Below are positions 755-5,208 of a DNA stretch of 5,407 nt, piece after piece. The notes under the pieces are model-generated. The model ran no database searches and was not told where the DNA came from. It saw nothing but the letters and a program-made list of their open reading frames with translations. Source of the DNA: an uncultured archaeon (GTDB taxonomy: Archaea > Iainarchaeota > Iainarchaeia > Iainarchaeales > CSSED10-239); the NCBI GenBank assembly GCA_964591795.1, contig CAZQEL010000034.1, forward strand, positions 1-5,407, in the 5' to 3' direction. Numbering within the stretch: the stretch's first letter is position 1; each line of letters opens with the position of its first letter. Position numbers and translations under genes: made by a program.

Positions 755-1612
755 TTAATAATTTTTAATAAGAACTTCTTTAATAAGTCCTCTATTTAGA
801 CCATTAGAATTAATCATTCTTCTAGCATTAACTTCTTTAATATTAAATTTTTTATAATTAGAATTTATAAAATCAGTAGAACTATTACTTTGAAGAAATT
901 TAACTTTTTTTTTATTTAAAGTATTACAAAAATCTTTAAGTAAAACTTGATCATCTCTAGTAAAGTCATCTTTAGTATAACTAGTAAAACTATTATCATC
1001 AATTTTATCATAAGGAGGATCTAAATACAAAAAATCATTTTTTTTAACAAATTTTAAAATATTAGAATAAGAACAAACTTTAAAATTTACCTTTTGTATT
1101 AATTTTGAAATTCTAATTAAACCATCATTATCAAAAATGGATGGATTTTTATATTTACCCATAGGTACATTAAATTGATTATCGCTATTAACTCTATATA
1201 ATCCATTAAAACAAGTTTTATTAAGATATATAAATCTAGCAGCTTTAGTTACATCATCACTACAAAAATTACTATCTTTTAAAATAATATTATGCTTTTT
1301 AGTAATTCTACTTTCTAAACCTCTAAGAGAATAATAAAATTCAAAAGAATGATTTTCTTTAAAATCAGTCAATATATTTATTAAATTATCAACATCATTT
1401 TTAACAATATTATAAACATTAATTAAATCTTCATTAATATCAGAAACAATTACATTTTTAACATCACAATTATTTAAAATATAAAATAAAACAGATCCTC
1501 CACCTAAAAAAGGTTCAAAATAATTACTAATAGATGAAGGTAGATTTTGAGATATTTCTGGCAACAATTGAGTTTTTCCACCAGCCCATTTTAGAAAAGG
1601 TTTAACTTTCAT
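755..1612 (-). CDS. dam: Dam-family (alpha-class, MethyltransfD12-type) DNA N6-adenine methyltransferase, DpnM/M.MboIA-like, 285 aa. GATC specificity is likely but not proven.
   Basis: The N-terminus is MKVKPFLKWAGGK. Motif I is FEPFLGGGSV (FLGGG at 1496..1510). The family-specific block RFIYLNKTCFNGLYRVNSDNQFNVPMGKY is present. Motif IV is LDPPY (1010..1021), and the C-terminus contains ARRMINSNGLNRGLIKEVLIKNY. Motif I precedes motif IV, giving the alpha-class order. I prefer the ATG at 1612 over the track's ATG at 1660, because the extra 16 residues (MYFSFLFLIFSTNIYI) are low-complexity AT-rich read-through and Dam proteins normally begin just before PFLKWAGGK. The stop is TAA at 755..757. 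Confidence 0.93.
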   Translation of the reverse strand: MKVKPFLKWAGGKTQLLPEISQNLPSSISNYFEPFLGGGSVLFYILNNCDVKNVIVSDINEDLINVYNIVKNDVDNLINILTDFKENHSFEFYYSLRGLESRITKKHNIILKDSNFCSDDVTKAARFIYLNKTCFNGLYRVNSDNQFNVPMGKYKNPSIFDNDGLIRISKLIQKVNFKVCSYSNILKFVKKNDFLYLDPPYDKIDDNSFTSYTKDDFTRDDQVLLKDFCNTLNKKKVKFLQSNSSTDFINSNYKKFNIKEVNARRMINSNGLNRGLIKEVLIKNY

Positions 1613-1706
1613 TATATATATATTAGTAGAAAATATTAAAAAGAGAAAAGAAAAGTACATTAAATAAAAGGTAATTATTAAATAATCTTTGATATACCAA
1701 TATTTT

Positions 1707-2150
1707 ATGAAAGATAAAAATAAACTTTTAAAAAATAAAACTCAATTTAAAGATATTTTAGAAGAAAACACTATAAACTATAAAGGGAAACATGAAAATA
1801 CAATAAAACAATGTCCAAAAATATATGAATTACTTTGTAAATTATTAGATTCGGAAACAATAGAGTCAAAAGATAAAAGCCAAATAAGTTCAGCCATAGC
1901 ATATTTTATTCTTCCAAAAGATATATTTCCTGAAGAATTATTTGGAGCAAAAGGATATATAGATGATATTTATTTAAGCCTATATATATTAAAAAAAATT
2001 GAACAAAAATATGAAATTGAAGAGTTATTAGAAAATTGGAACTACGATTGTAAACTCTTAATAAACTTATTAAATAAAGAATATCAAATGTTAAATAAAG
2101 AATATAATTACATATTAAAAGATATGTTAGAATATATTGGACTTAAATAG
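1707..2150 (+). CDS. Hypothetical 147-aa Lys/Glu-rich protein with a DUF1232 (YkvA)-like core motif. It is the only plus-strand gene in the window.
   Basis: The ORF is open from 1689 to 2150. The track starts it at TTG 1689, but I prefer the first ATG at 1707 (MKDKNKLLKN...). Residues encoded at about 1893..1991 read AIAYFILPKDIFPEELFGAKGYIDDIYLSLYIL. This fits my recollection of the DUF1232 signature (A-L-x-Y-x-x-x-P-x-D-x-I-P-D-x-x-P-x-x-G-x-x-D-D). There is no Shine-Dalgarno upstream of either candidate start. The stop is TAG at 2148..2150. The coding call rests on ORF length in a stop-codon-rich AT background plus this motif. The domain call is tentative. Confidence 0.6.
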   Translation: MKDKNKLLKNKTQFKDILEENTINYKGKHENTIKQCPKIYELLCKLLDSETIESKDKSQISSAIAYFILPKDIFPEELFGAKGYIDDIYLSLYILKKIEQKYEIEELLENWNYDCKLLINLLNKEYQMLNKEYNYILKDMLEYIGLK

Positions 2151-2160
2151 AATATAGTTA

Positions 2161-2175
2161 ATAGCTAATAGCTAT
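2161..2175. repeat. Short inverted repeat (ATAGCT-aat-AGCTAT, equivalent to two copies of the palindrome TAGCTA) in the 24-bp gap between the convergent genes. It may be a weak bidirectional terminator.
   Basis: This is read directly from the sequence: 2161-2166 atagct, loop 2167-2169 aat, 2170-2175 agctat. The stem is only 6 bp and is not followed by a clear U-tract on either strand, so its function is uncertain. Confidence 0.25.
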
Positions 2176-3311
2176 CAACTACAAGAATTATATATTCTTT
2201 TTAAAACATCTTGAATTTCAGAAATTCTTTCTTTTTCAGATCCACTAAGTTTTTTTGGATTAGTAGCAGAAAAATTAACTCTAGATAATATTTCATAAAC
2301 TGTATTTAATTTATTTATAAAATTTTTTTCATTTTTTTTCATTTTAATATTAACTGCTAAGATATTTGGCTTTTGAGAACCTATTAATAAATCATCTATT
2401 TCAGAATCAGTTCCATTTTCTATAATATATGAAAAATCTCTAACATTTGAATCTCCAGATGCAGCTGCTTTTATAATTGGTAAATAATCATTAGTACCAT
2501 ACATAAGATCAATAATTTTTTCTACAGATTCATCACTAAAAGTAAAAGTTTGGTCATCAAAATTAAAATATCTTCTTAAATTATTTTTTTTAAGAATATC
2601 ACCTATAATTGAAAATTTTTTGGTAAGATCATCAGAAGACCTAGGATAATGTTCTAATTGATAATAAGCTCTATAAGTTCTTAATTTATCTCTAACATCA
2701 TTAATTTTTAAGGAATATAAATTTGCAATAATTTTAGATATCTTATGATCATATCTAAAACTAGAAAAATCATTTTCATTACCACCATATTCTCTAAAAT
2801 AATAAGACATATAAGTTTTAAAAATATTAAAAGAAGCAGGTAAAAAAGACCATTGTTTTATAGATCCATGGTGTCTTAAACCTAATAAATAATTAATTTC
2901 TTCTTCACAATTATTAGTAAGATCAATACAATTTATTTTAGTCATAGAATTTAAAATAGATTCTGATAAAATATCATTTTTAGTTGCTTCTGACTTATGT
3001 TTTTGAATCAAATACTTAATAGCAGTAATTCTTCTATTACCTTCTACAACAAGATATTTTTGATTTATCTTTTTAACAAATATATTTTCAAAGGGTATAA
3101 AACCTTTATTTTTGATAGATTCAGCTAAATAACTAATTTCAAAATGATTTGTCGAAGCTAACATCTTTAATAAAACCTCTTCTTGAACATCATCAGATTC
3201 ATATTCCTCTTTAGACACTAAATTTTCAAAACTTTTAGAAAATCTAGGATTATTTGGGTCTAATATTAAATCATCTATATCTAAACGTATAGATTCACCT
3301 ATATTACTCAT
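2175..3311 (-). CDS. ParB/Sulfiredoxin-fold (ParBc, 'ParB-like nuclease') N-terminal-domain protein, 378 aa, with an unassigned C-terminal region of about 270 aa.
   Basis: The N-terminus reads IRLDIDDLILDPNNPRF (DPNNPR at 3243..3260). It continues with LAESIKNKGFIPFENIFVKKINQKYLVVEGNRRITAIKYL (EGNRR at 3030..3044). Together these give the ParB-N pattern: I-x-x-I-x-x-x-P-x-N-P-R, then L-x-x-S-I-x-x-x-G-x-x-x-P, then the G-x-R-R-x-x-A arginine box. An AGGAGA Shine-Dalgarno lies 8 nt upstream of the ATG at 3311. The stop is TGA at 2175..2177, immediately followed by TAG. Confidence 0.85.
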   Translation of the reverse strand: MSNIGESIRLDIDDLILDPNNPRFSKSFENLVSKEEYESDDVQEEVLLKMLASTNHFEISYLAESIKNKGFIPFENIFVKKINQKYLVVEGNRRITAIKYLIQKHKSEATKNDILSESILNSMTKINCIDLTNNCEEEINYLLGLRHHGSIKQWSFLPASFNIFKTYMSYYFREYGGNENDFSSFRYDHKISKIIANLYSLKINDVRDKLRTYRAYYQLEHYPRSSDDLTKKFSIIGDILKKNNLRRYFNFDDQTFTFSDESVEKIIDLMYGTNDYLPIIKAAASGDSNVRDFSYIIENGTDSEIDDLLIGSQKPNILAVNIKMKKNEKNFINKLNTVYEILSRVNFSATNPKKLSGSEKERISEIQDVLKRIYNSCS

Positions 3312-3312
3312 A

Positions 3313-5196
3313 TTAAATTTCTCCTAAAATTTTATTTAAATTACAATCATAAATATAGTCTTTTAATTCAAATTTCACCAAATATATTATACTTAATATA
3401 AATTTCAAATCTATAGGAAATTTATTTAAAGATGAAATTTTAGCAAAAACTAATTTATTTTGATCTTTTATATCATAATTTTTTATTTTTTCTAAATCAC
3501 AAATTAAATTTAGAATAAATTCATAATTTTCTTTAGAAACATAACAACCTTCAAACCCTCCAAAAACAAGTGGCATCTTAAAAACATAACCTGTCGGATT
3601 CAAAGAATCATAATTCTTTTTTAAAACATTTTTATTAATACAATTATCAATAAATTTAAGAAATAAATCTGGAAAATCATCTATTTTGGAAAATAAAAAA
3701 TATTTTAATCTTTCAACTTTTTCTTTAGAAATAATTTCATTATCTGCATGCTTTAAAGCAGTAACTAAATCAGTTACAAAACAATCTTCTGAAAAAAAAG
3801 TATCTTCTCTTGAAACTTTAAGAATATCAAATAAATATCTATTATAATAATTATAAACAGATGATATATTATTAGATAAAGAATTATAAATATTAATATA
3901 CTTATAATAATCTTCACCTCCAATTGGTAAAATCTTCCAAACACTGTCAGCAGAAATAGACCTATTATAATTAAAAACTAATAAAGAAAATTTAGATCCA
4001 TTATTATAAATATCATAATTTAAACGAGTATCTTCAACATTATATTTTTTTAAAATTAGATTTAATTTTTCATTGAAATCTATAGGATTTTTATATTTTT
4101 GTTCAATAACAATTGGTTCTAAACTATCAGAGATATCTGAAAATAACCATAAATTATTAATTCTATATTTCATATTTAAATGGTCATCAAAAAGGTCTAA
4201 AACATAAACATCTTTCCAATTTTGTTTAGGAGATCTTACAACTCTACCTACACATTGAACATAATAAAGAACAGATTTTGTAGGTACACCCATAACAACA
4301 GTATTAATACTAGGGTCATCATAACCTTCATTCAATATTTTACAATTAATTAATATAGAAGATGATAAAGATTTATGATAATTCAAATAATCTTCAGTAG
4401 ACAATTTTAAATCATTATCTAAGCTATGAATAAAACCTATATGATTATAAGGTAAACCTAGAGATTCATTTTTAGATTTCAAAGTAGCCCATAAATCCTC
4501 AACATGCTTATTAGTACTTACAAACACAATAACTTTCTTATAAATATCTGTTCTTTCAAAAATAATTTCTGCAATTTTATTATTTCTTTCAGTAGTATTA
4601 AATAAAGAAGAACCTTCATCATCAGCATTAACTGTTATATTTGTATTAACATCATGAAAAATAGGTTTTAAAATTACATTTTTTTTAATAAGATCCAAAA
4701 AACTTATAGAATAAGAAACCTTTTCAAATTTTAATTCTTTATCATCATTTCTTGTAGGTGTTGCAGTTAAACCTAAAACACCTATCTTTTTAGTAAAAAA
4801 ACAATCATAACCCCTAGCTCCACAATGATGAGCTTCATCAATAATAACAAATTTATATTCTTCAGAATTTAATAATTTTTTAGCATTTGTAACTAATTCT
4901 ACATGAATTGTTTTAGATAAAGAATCACAAAAATTAAATTTTATTTTATTTTTATAATTATTAATTACTTCGGTAGTTTGAGCTTTTAGTTGAATTCTAT
5001 GACAAACCCATAATATTTTTTCTTCAGGTTTTATAAAACCATCTTTAATTAACTTATTTATAGTTCTAATAGCAGTTAAAGTTTTACCTCCACCTGTAGG
5101 TATAACTAATAACAATTTAGAATATAAATTTGTTTTAAAATCATCACAAATATTTTTTATAGCTTCATCTTGAAAAGAATAATCTACATTTTCCAT
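3313..5196 (-). CDS. Superfamily-2 DEAH-box helicase/translocase (ResIII + Helicase_C type core, aa 1-~335) with an unassigned C-terminal domain of about 290 aa. Total length is 627 aa.
   Basis: All SF2 motifs can be read directly. These are Q-like YSFQDEAI; motif I IPTGGGKT (PTGGGKT at 5080..5100); Ia ILWVCHRIQL; II VIIDEAHH (4825..4839); III GLTATP (4756..4773); IV KVIVFVST; V INCKILNEGYDDPSINTVV; and VI QCVGRVVR (4234..4257). I prefer the ATG at 5196 (MENVDYSF...) to the track's GTG at 5205, because that GTG is part of an AAGGTG Shine-Dalgarno 6 nt upstream of the ATG. Walker A begins at residue 33, so there is no room for an N-terminal nuclease domain of the HsdR type. The stop is TAA at 3313..3315. 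Confidence 0.9.
   Translation of the reverse strand: MENVDYSFQDEAIKNICDDFKTNLYSKLLLVIPTGGGKTLTAIRTINKLIKDGFIKPEEKILWVCHRIQLKAQTTEVINNYKNKIKFNFCDSLSKTIHVELVTNAKKLLNSEEYKFVIIDEAHHCGARGYDCFFTKKIGVLGLTATPTRNDDKELKFEKVSYSISFLDLIKKNVILKPIFHDVNTNITVNADDEGSSLFNTTERNNKIAEIIFERTDIYKKVIVFVSTNKHVEDLWATLKSKNESLGLPYNHIGFIHSLDNDLKLSTEDYLNYHKSLSSSILINCKILNEGYDDPSINTVVMGVPTKSVLYYVQCVGRVVRSPKQNWKDVYVLDLFDDHLNMKYRINNLWLFSDISDSLEPIVIEQKYKNPIDFNEKLNLILKKYNVEDTRLNYDIYNNGSKFSLLVFNYNRSISADSVWKILPIGGEDYYKYINIYNSLSNNISSVYNYYNRYLFDILKVSREDTFFSEDCFVTDLVTALKHADNEIISKEKVERLKYFLFSKIDDFPDLFLKFIDNCINKNVLKKNYDSLNPTGYVFKMPLVFGGFEGCYVSKENYEFILNLICDLEKIKNYDIKDQNKLVFAKISSLNKFPIDLKFILSIIYLVKFELKDYIYDCNLNKILGEI
3320..3325 (-). promoter_or_regulatory. 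Shine-Dalgarno (AGGAGA) for the ParB-like gene, embedded in the last codons of the helicase gene.
   Basis: The minus strand reads ttttAGGAGAaatttaatATG, an 8-nt spacer. The helicase TAA (3313..3315) lies between the SD and the ATG, 1 nt before the ATG. This is the classic geometry for translational coupling. Confidence 0.6.
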
Positions 5197-5202
5197 TAAG
5201 CA

Positions 5203-5208
5203 CACCTT
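5203..5208 (-). promoter_or_regulatory. Shine-Dalgarno-like AAGGTG for the helicase gene.
   Basis: The minus strand reads ggtAAGGTGtgcttaATGGAA, a 6-nt spacer to the ATG at 5196. Confidence 0.5.

Follow-up and report, generated by a model that had tools for sequence, protein, structure and literature searches.

Genetic organization of the helicase–ParB locus

The DNA region analyzed in this study (hereafter the window) is the whole of a 5407-bp public contig (CAZQEL010000034.1; GC content ~21%) of an uncultured archaeon. Its central part contains two adjacent genes, which encode a superfamily 2 (SF2) DEAH helicase/translocase and a protein with the ParB/Srx (ParB-CTPase) fold. This pair, the subject of the present analysis, is located between the 3′ end of a type I restriction gene (hsdR) and two DNA methyltransferase genes (Table 1). 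The main genes are all on the minus strand, with the exception of a DUF1232 gene, which is placed in the opposite orientation between the ParB-like gene and the methyltransferases.

The helicase open reading frame (ORF) extends from a GTG codon (3313..5205); its likely start is the ATG codon at position 5196, which is preceded by the sequence AAGGTG and separated from the end of hsdR by a 112-nt intergenic region. An identical 627-aa helicase is called from this ATG in public data (P0099). At the other end of the gene, a single base (3312) separates the TAA stop codon (3315..3313) from the ATG of the ParB-like gene (3311..3309), and the AGGAGA sequence serving the latter (3325..3320; 8 nt upstream of the ATG) is contained in the helicase ORF. 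Helicase and ParB-like protein are produced together and almost certainly act as one unit. A first-pass annotation of this DNA, made from the sequence alone, had described the same junction, with hsdR upstream of the pair and two methyltransferases downstream; inspection of the sequence and Pfam matches for the hsdR and methyltransferase genes bear this out.

Table 1. Features of the 5407-bp window.
Feature	Position	Strand	Basis or remark
N6_N4 DNA methyltransferase, first 231 codons	1..695	−	Pfam N6_N4_Mtase 3e-52; 255 aa in locus L171
Dam-family D12 N6-adenine DNA methyltransferase	755..1660	−	Pfam MethyltransfD12 7.6e-66, NCBIfam dam 1.4e-86
DUF1232 (YkvA-family) gene	1689..2150	+	Pfam DUF1232 2.2e-8
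Hairpin, 14-bp stem, likely bidirectional terminator	2153..2183		between the convergent ParB-like and DUF1232 genes
ParB/Srx (ParB-CTPase) fold protein, 378 aa	2175..3311	−	motifs, AlphaFold model, Foldseek
AGGAGA ribosome-binding site of the ParB-like gene	3320..3325	−	read from the sequence
SF2 DEAH helicase/translocase, 627 aa	3313..5196	−	ORF; Pfam ResIII, DEAD, Helicase_C
3′ end of type I restriction hsdR, last 33 codons	5309..5407	−	Pfam T1RH-like_C PF11867, 4.7e-9; context only

Conservation of the pair in related loci

The genetic neighborhood of the pair was compared in 175 loci: 80 in species-representative genomes, 79 in metagenomic data, and the remainder obtained through exact look-ups or as a single phage record. 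The loci were gathered mainly from the ParB side (up to 80 per collection) and duplicates were removed.

Class A comprises the close relatives of the window ParB (37 loci). In all 33 of these with visible upstream DNA, a helicase of the same family is encoded directly upstream, on the same strand. Class B (41 loci) consists of a helicase, three tandem ParB paralogues and a phospholipase D-type (PLD) protein, the last being present in 33 of the 41; the helicase gene is adjacent in 31 of the 32 loci with readable upstream DNA. Class C (78 loci) contains a single ParB (~365 aa), followed in 72 of the 78 by a ~250-aa Mrr_cat nuclease (Pfam 6e-15). Classes B and C, i.e. helicase, three ParBs and PLD beside dndBCDE, and ParB with Mrr, are predicted sister architectures that share one ParB family, recognized by a GNRR motif, with the window pair. 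Examples of class B are L008 (6050–13738), L019, L020, L021, L123–L157 and L167, and examples of class C are L022–L091 and L158–L170 (e.g. L023, 9965–11820).

Among the 82 loci having the pair, most show a helicase–ParB junction of −8 to +18 nt. Since a 1-nt junction is ordinary for operons, the significance of the pair derives instead from the adjacency of the two genes, kept across ~70 non-redundant loci. Two look-ups that started from the helicase gave the same picture: in both cases a gene of the ParB family was found directly downstream (E values of 1e-143 and 1e-120), accompanied by a D12 methyltransferase gene. Moreover, at least four natural helicase–ParB fusions were identified, two in class A (P0116, 910 aa; P0221, 905 aa) and, among the class B loci, L133 and L134. 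The ParB region also forms the C-terminal part of three more proteins (700–914 aa), in which this region alone was examined. The homologous neighborhoods thus support the co-expression of the pair, which the first-pass annotation had inferred, and its conservation as immediate neighbors, which that annotation had named as a point to check.

In a profile search the GNRR ParB-like family comprised ~260 clusters (50% identity) at E ≤ 1e-30 and ~1000 at E ≤ 1e-10, with hosts among bacteria of the Candidate Phyla Radiation (CPR), DPANN archaea, Proteobacteria, Acidobacteria, Bacteroidota and P2-like phages. No close relatives were found in plasmid and phage collections, which yielded just distant ParB-N proteins (in a P2 hotspot) and one plasmid ParB. 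In one locus (L018, 9965–12112), the insertion of an ISL3-family transposase truncates the ParB gene at 267 codons.

Genetic linkage to DNA modification genes

A modification gene is present in 11 of the 12 class A loci with at least 3 kb of DNA on both sides, compared with 15 of 60 class C loci (Fisher p = 2e-5). In class A this is usually a gene for a Dam-class (D12) methyltransferase. It is convergent with the ParB gene in 10 independent loci, not more than 6 nt from the stop codon (with an overlap in 9 of them, usually of 4 nt), and in most of these a gene encoding a 71-aa helix-turn-helix (HTH) protein follows. Three surveyed loci have D12 directly upstream of the helicase gene (gaps of −4, +1 and 123 nt), and L174 is a fourth (gap of 1 nt). 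In L119, the order helicase–ParB–DUF1232 is continued by dndCDE in place of a methyltransferase, and dndBCDE adjoins class B in 8 of the 11 loci that are fully flanked. The pair is therefore genetically tied to modification genes, the type of which is interchangeable. Such swapping of the modification chemistry around a retained ParB core is the pattern expected of a restriction system that is protected by a self-mark.

The first-pass annotation had proposed a self-contained two-gene module. This view is not sustained: the cassette normally includes a modification gene, and often a nuclease, DUF1232 or a 73-aa protein. An autonomous pair, which would sense and destroy invader DNA irrespective of host modification, with the methyltransferases as mere neighbors in a defense island, is in our opinion unlikely. 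It would account for three class A loci (L102, L103 and L113) that contain the pair and the 73-aa gene without D12 or dnd beside them (the neighbors being TIR, PLD, DUF3800 or kinase genes), for the fact that the window methylases already have a DpnII endonuclease of their own, and for the general clustering of defense genes, exemplified here by the type I hsdR upstream. Against it stand the 14 independent loci in which D12 is coupled to the helicase or meets the ParB stop codon, the mutual replacement of methyltransferase and dnd genes, and the enrichment of modification genes relative to the ParB–Mrr class. Loci in which D12 stands alone within the operon speak for a dependence of the pair on methylation, whereas L102, L103 and L113 indicate that it is not absolute.

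Class B (~40 loci) looks like an undescribed alternative to dndFGH and pbeABCD as restriction partner of phosphorothioation. The class C pair sometimes adjoins D12, N6_N4 and DpnII genes, or dnd genes. In L006, a 443-aa ParB_N–N6_N4 methyltransferase fusion (11904–13235) is encoded 2 kb from a helicase–ParB–D12 cassette; this ParB-fold gene, the second of the island, is unrelated to the first.

The DpnII-type cassette and other type II enzymes

An exact look-up with the helicase identified a near-identical longer contig from another sample (L171), with 3 base differences from the window in 5407; the corresponding look-up of the ParB-like protein returned no contig, and a further one (P0220) yielded nothing additional. 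L171 continues past the N6_N4 gene into a gene for a DpnII-family endonuclease (PF04556; 5532–6440), i.e. just beyond window position 1. The presence of this endonuclease after both methyltransferases shows that the "double methyltransferase", which had been taken for island context, belongs to a complete type II system of the DpnII type, of which it is the dpnM/dpnA-like half. The features of such a system (D12 and N6_N4 methylases and a DpnII-family endonuclease in one operon) are those of this neighboring cassette and not of the pair.

The D12 enzyme (likely start at 1612, giving 285 aa; also called as a gene in L171) and the N6_N4 enzyme are the predicted first and second methylases of this DpnII-type (GATC) cassette, the GATC specificity being assigned solely from the association with DpnII. 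The window shows no depletion of GATC sites (15 observed versus 11.4 expected).

DpnII is also present in L092 and L015. In other loci its place, with D12/N6_N4 methylases, is taken by a small PD-ExK family (~180 aa; weak PDDEXK_11 match), encoded in L001 (5379–5927), L012 (5837–6361), L014 (7766–8332) and L175 (10253–10786). These proteins probably form an uncharacterized family of type II endonucleases. In L013, the type II endonuclease position is occupied by a DUF6996/6997 protein. In the endonuclease-bearing loci the helicase–ParB module may share the type II methylation, or may be independent of the type II enzyme.

A scan of the AT-rich window for promoters was uninformative (54 matches versus 51 expected), and the hairpin at the end of the ParB-like gene is the sole terminator-like match in the window. 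Genetic code 4, considered on account of the 21% GC content, was rejected: TGG encodes Trp and no in-frame TGA interrupts the ORFs.

The helicase

The GGGKT (K38) and DEAH (D120–H123) motifs are invariant across 62 helicase homologues. The Pfam domains ResIII (3.7e-20) and Helicase_C (1.2e-9) together cover residues 10–324 of an ATPase core spanning residues 1–360, which leaves a C-terminal part of ~270 aa. The AlphaFold model (predicted local distance difference test score, pLDDT, of 89.5) had as its top Foldseek matches translocases of double-stranded DNA and repair helicases, namely RadD, SauUSI (7clg), the type ISP enzyme LlaBIII, XPB and HsdR of EcoR124I. The PADLOC matches, to PbeA (1.2e-19) and the SauUSI-like mREase_IV (3.9e-8), are confined to the helicase part of these models.

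No nuclease domain was detected in the helicase by Pfam, PADLOC, NCBIfam or Foldseek, the last with the full-length model, for which the search is dominated by the helicase core. The C-terminal ~270 aa are common to the class B helicases and have no catalytic-looking conserved residues or detectable relatives. A nuclease within this part was considered and rejected: it contains no conserved acidic, Lys or His motifs, and gave no Pfam match and no sequence match to the PDB in a profile search.

The ParB-like protein

The DPNNPR (residues 18–23) and GNRR (91–94) boxes are invariant in 62 homologues of the ParB-like protein, as are residues D18, N21, P22, R23, E90–R94, G144, R146 and H147. GNRR, the P-motif, was found in 231 of 231 family members checked, in all three architectures; the canonical ParB sequence is GERR. 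Pfam matches are below threshold for both ParB_N (E value of 0.015; 15.8 bits versus a cut-off of 26.3) and GmrSD_N (0.01; 16.4 bits versus 33.2). The AlphaFold model (pLDDT 90.7) comprises an N-terminal domain of the nucleoside triphosphate (NTP)-binding type, a middle helical domain that aligns with the HTH region of ParB, and C-terminal long helices. Its Foldseek matches are KorB (8qa9), ParB (7bnk, the Myxococcus protein with CDP), Noc (7ol9) and Spo0J (1vz0), with a probability of 1.0 over ~270 columns, which span the nucleotide-binding N-domain and the adjoining helical DNA-binding region. Sulfiredoxin and SerK match over the N-domain alone. On the basis of the modeled N-domain fold and the arginine P-motif, both of which are present, the protein is assigned to the ParB-CTPase fold superfamily. 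The complete DEAH core lacking a recognizable nuclease, and the ParB-N fold with both of its boxes, had been noted in the first-pass annotation and are corroborated by these searches.

The best PADLOC match of the ParB-like protein is PDC-M38A (1.1e-26; residues 6–276, profile positions 8–258 of 715). In addition, 18 PD-Lambda-5_A models were matched (best 7e-17; residues 8–150, profile positions 5–141 of 466).

The helicase-linked ParBs of class A, and paralogues 1 and 2 of class B, retain a motif of the RHHG type (LGLRHHG, residues 143–149 of the window ParB), which is lacking in the Mrr-linked class C and almost entirely missing from paralogue 3 of class B. In the model, it lies in the sole low-confidence loop (residues 148–151).

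Associated nucleases and accessory genes

A PLD/HKD protein with one HxK motif is encoded by a gene of its own in about a third of the class A loci and in most of class B. L094 contains instead a gene for a 311-aa HNH-like protein, identified from motifs alone (no Pfam family at E ≤ 0.01); its interpretation as a divergent PLD was rejected. The window, L119 and those short-helicase loci without PLD have no separate nuclease gene. As judged from gene content, the nucleases are interchangeable around the ParB core: PLD/HKD, HNH-like, Mrr_cat, or none.

In the closest relatives of the window locus (L092, with 49% identity, L001, L012, L096 and L098), a PLD gene is located between ParB and DUF1232. 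In the window just 24 nt separate these two genes, so that PLD was either lost or never gained in this lineage. The presence of PLD in all of the nearest relatives raises the question of whether the window carries a decaying remnant, which lost PLD and whose remaining genes restrict nothing. We consider this quite improbable, in view of the intact ORFs and invariant motifs and of the independent recurrence of PLD-less versions (L094 with HNH, L119, and the short-helicase loci without PLD). The genes are also intact in both near-identical contigs, which come from different samples and whose 3 substitutions are too few for a test of selection.

Class A can be divided into two sub-types. The long-helicase sub-type, to which the window belongs, has a helicase of ~630–650 aa, PLD or HNH or neither, and a conserved DUF1232 gene; in the short-helicase sub-type a conserved 73-aa protein is, as a rule, encoded before the helicase (~520–565 aa). 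The DUF1232 gene, the product of which in the window has 153 aa when started at TTG 1689 and 147 aa when started at ATG 1707, occupies the same convergent position in L001, L002, L012, L092, L096, L098 and L119, and is on the same strand in L094. It accompanies the long-helicase/ParB(/PLD) sub-type as a conserved convergent neighbor in organisms that are only distantly related. Neither this conserved member of the sub-type nor the DpnII endonuclease past the methyltransferases had been included in the first-pass annotation. No report of a defense role for the DUF1232 family was found in the literature searched. Coordinates of the gene are 10073–10537 in L001, 6682–7128 in L002, 4246–4695 in L012 and 4569–5018 in L092.

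The 73-aa protein (RFKRLAxxRTN…LSNCSNRSxYxY…KIF), which has no Pfam match, is encoded before the short helicase in 17 non-redundant loci, including L004 (6188–6409), L006 (6196–6417), L016, L017, L100, L102, L103 and L113. A copy hidden in the window or fused to the window helicase was sought, and neither was found.

Comparison with known systems

Using the PADLOC 2.0 models, no system model was found that covers both proteins at full length; the matches are partial for each of them, in agreement with the first-pass annotation. The tests for membership in PD-λ-5, PbeABCD, type III restriction-modification (R-M), ParABS, GmrSD/SspE, SauUSI and DISARM each failed in at least one defining feature. 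Likewise, the architectures (ParB with helicase, methyltransferase and PLD; a ParB-like anti-phage helicase; ParB with Mrr) are undescribed in the papers found. A fold-wide survey of ParB-CTPases (PMC12704722) does not cover helicase-linked members, and the paper on PbeA (PMC10853773) makes no mention of a helicase-linked ParB module. The helicase–ParB cassette is therefore apparently undescribed as an architecture.

The nearest validated system is PD-λ-5, composed of a ParB-N-type protein and a D12 methyltransferase. It is broadly anti-phage and was described by its authors as compacted "RM+Abi" (PMC9519451); its cloning required a host deleted for mrr (Vassallo et al. 2022, PMC9519451). The window likewise has a ParB-N-type protein with an adjacent D12 methylase, the latter matching PD-Lambda-5_B (6.5e-16; residues 23–282, profile positions 8–256 of 291). 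However, this methylase scores far better as a type II Dam-class MTase_II (5e-93), the DUF1232 gene separates it from ParB, and only the N-terminal ~150 aa of the window ParB match PD-λ-5_A (~470 aa), the rest of which is unrelated. PD-λ-5 itself is a two-gene system without helicase, PLD or DUF1232, whereas in the window family the helicase is obligatory (33/33). A P2-like phage hotspot after the portal gene (L172; NC_049457.1, 5009–8045) contains a set of three genes, encoding a 372-aa ParB-N protein (PD-Lambda-5_A, 7.5e-23), a 330-aa protein without Pfam or PADLOC match and, in convergent orientation, a C5 cytosine methyltransferase. It is a predicted three-gene relative of PD-λ-5 with a different class of methylase.

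According to its re-annotation (PMC10853773), PbeA is an HKD nuclease–SF2 helicase fusion found together with dnd or methylase genes. The window helicase is of the same SF2 sub-type, and its relatives have an HKD/PLD nuclease and adjoin dnd genes, as in PbeABCD/CxC-ABC. In contrast to PbeA, it matches only positions 254–420 of the 672-position profile and has no HKD motif, and counterparts of the CxC ABC ATPase (PbeC), the DndE cognate (PbeD) and the small disordered PbeB are absent from the window and L171. The present family looks like a PbeA whose helicase and HKD parts have become separate genes and to which a ParB-fold protein has been added as a constant partner.

Type III and type ISP (Mod/Res) systems resemble the window family in that a ResIII-family translocase is coupled to an adenine methyltransferase, and several relatives show the type III order of methyltransferase then helicase, with overlapping stop and start codons. 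The window helicase nevertheless has no PD-(D/E)xK domain in residues 360–627, the adjacent methylase is a Dam-class D12 enzyme instead of a Mod-type enzyme with a target-recognition domain, and type III systems have no counterpart of the ParB-fold partner. As for DISARM, no DrmA or DrmB match was found, and the PLD proteins of the relatives match DrmC weakly (1e-4 to 1e-6). The PADLOC candidate PDC-M38 provides, with PDC-M38A, the best match for the window ParB and all relatives tested; this match covers the profile only partially, the helicase matches no PDC-M38 model, and no paper on PDC-M38 was found in the literature search.

The ParB/Srx fold is also found in other modification-linked defense proteins, namely those of the DUF262 type (GmrSD, BrxU, SspE and DndI) and DndB/DpdB, and some of these are NTP-regulated (PMC11662687; PMC13251355). 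The window ParB differs from GmrSD, BrxU and SspE in that GmrSD_N is below cut-off, there is no fused DUF1524 HNH domain and the structural neighbors are ParB/KorB rather than DUF262. The helicase core, in turn, aligns with that of SauUSI (profile positions 241–570 of 945) and matches its structure; it lacks the N-terminal PLD nuclease and the C-terminal DUF3427 reader of this enzyme. A modification-dependent (type IV-like) restriction, in which the pair would attack foreign-modified DNA like SauUSI or GmrSD, could explain the structural match, the similarity of the helicase core to mREase_IV (up to 1.6e-17 for the relatives) and the weak GmrSD_N match. We judge it very unlikely: apart from the missing DUF3427, no SRA-type reader is present, PLD is not fused, no DUF1524 HNH domain occurs, and coupling to methyltransferase or dnd genes at the operon level is a signature of systems protected by self-modification and not of type IV systems.

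The CTP-gated clamps ParB, KorB and Noc provide the best structural match (N-domain and helical region), with a conserved GxxRR P-motif. Canonical ParB differs from the window protein in having GERR for GNRR, Gln for Asn in box I, as well as a domain for dimerization at its C-terminus. ParABS loci differ as well, since the partner gene here encodes a helicase; there is no ParA among the window ORFs or in the neighborhood tables examined, and no parS-like repeat array in the window. With RadD, a repair helicase, and the partition/regulatory proteins ParB/KorB as best structural matches, and with integrases or recombinases adjoining some loci, a role other than defense (DNA partition, RadD-like repair or DNA processing by a mobile element) was also weighed. 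It appears extremely unlikely: no ParA, parS-like repeats, relaxase or replication genes accompany the pair in any locus examined, the neighbors are genes for restriction enzymes, methyltransferases, dnd, TIR, toxin–antitoxin and HKD nucleases, and the distribution is patchy (CPR bacteria, DPANN archaea and other phyla). Defense rather than partition, and the absence of adjacent ParA, parS arrays and replication genes, had been proposed for the window; the related loci agree.

Proposed function of the helicase–ParB core

The recurrence of the pair in dozens of unrelated microbes, nearly always beside modification genes, points to the core of a restriction system and not to a free-standing module. 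In our preferred reading, to which we give roughly equal chances of being right or wrong, a modification-linked restriction system driven by ATP has these two proteins, the helicase and the ParB-fold protein, as its constant core.

How such a core would work we infer from motifs, predicted folds and gene content. The ParB-fold protein would be an NTP-binding DNA clamp or switch, the N-domain and HTH-like middle domain of which engage DNA that does not carry the host mark. It would then license, recruit or tether the SF2 translocase on double-stranded DNA, and in many relatives the translocase would deliver a separately encoded nuclease (PLD/HKD or HNH). Host DNA would be spared because of the mark made by the linked modification enzymes. 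In the genome studied here this mark would most likely be GATC N6-adenine methylation by the adjacent DpnII-type methylases, with the D12 enzyme as its probable source, so that the module would share its self-mark with DpnII. Since this copy has no PLD, damage would have to come from ParB itself, from a neighboring endonuclease or from translocation alone. DUF1232 would be a conserved accessory. Of the motor and effector roles suggested in the first-pass annotation, that of a ParB effector is not supported: its fold is nearest to NTP-gated clamps, and the nucleases of the relatives are encoded by separate genes, of which the window has none. On the whole, what that annotation had observed is confirmed, and its interpretation is partly supported.

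Several observations weigh against a modification-linked restriction core. The window has no PLD gene in its short ParB–DUF1232 gap. Neither D12 nor dnd adjoins the pair in four class A loci (L102, L103, L113 and L100, the last with an N6_N4 methyltransferase ~3 kb upstream). The methylases of the window, and of at least seven further class A loci, are accompanied by their own candidate type II endonuclease, and may serve that enzyme alone. The sequence kinship of the ParB-like protein to solved ParBs is near noise (E ≈ 0.9), and with Asn in place of the catalytic Glu of GERR and of the box I Gln its NTP binding and hydrolysis are putative. Finally, neighboring genes were annotated with ad hoc hidden Markov models (built from the window genes and their first homologues) and simple ORF calls.

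More tentatively, and with some doubt on our part, the family could represent a new class of restriction-type immunity, in which a translocase is bound to an NTP switch of the ParB-CTPase fold and combined with interchangeable self-marking modules (Dam-class N6-methyladenine, N6_N4 or phosphorothioate) and interchangeable nucleases (HKD, HNH or none).

If the preferred reading is true, a widespread family would be added to the known restriction-type defenses, and it would likely provide the missing restriction partner for many dndBCDE clusters without dndFGH or pbeABCD. A branch of the ParB-CTPase fold would also gain a functional setting. Should the ParB-like protein act as a nucleotide-gated clamp, reading the modification state of DNA and licensing the motor, ParB-type clamp chemistry would here be used for the first time in self/non-self discrimination.

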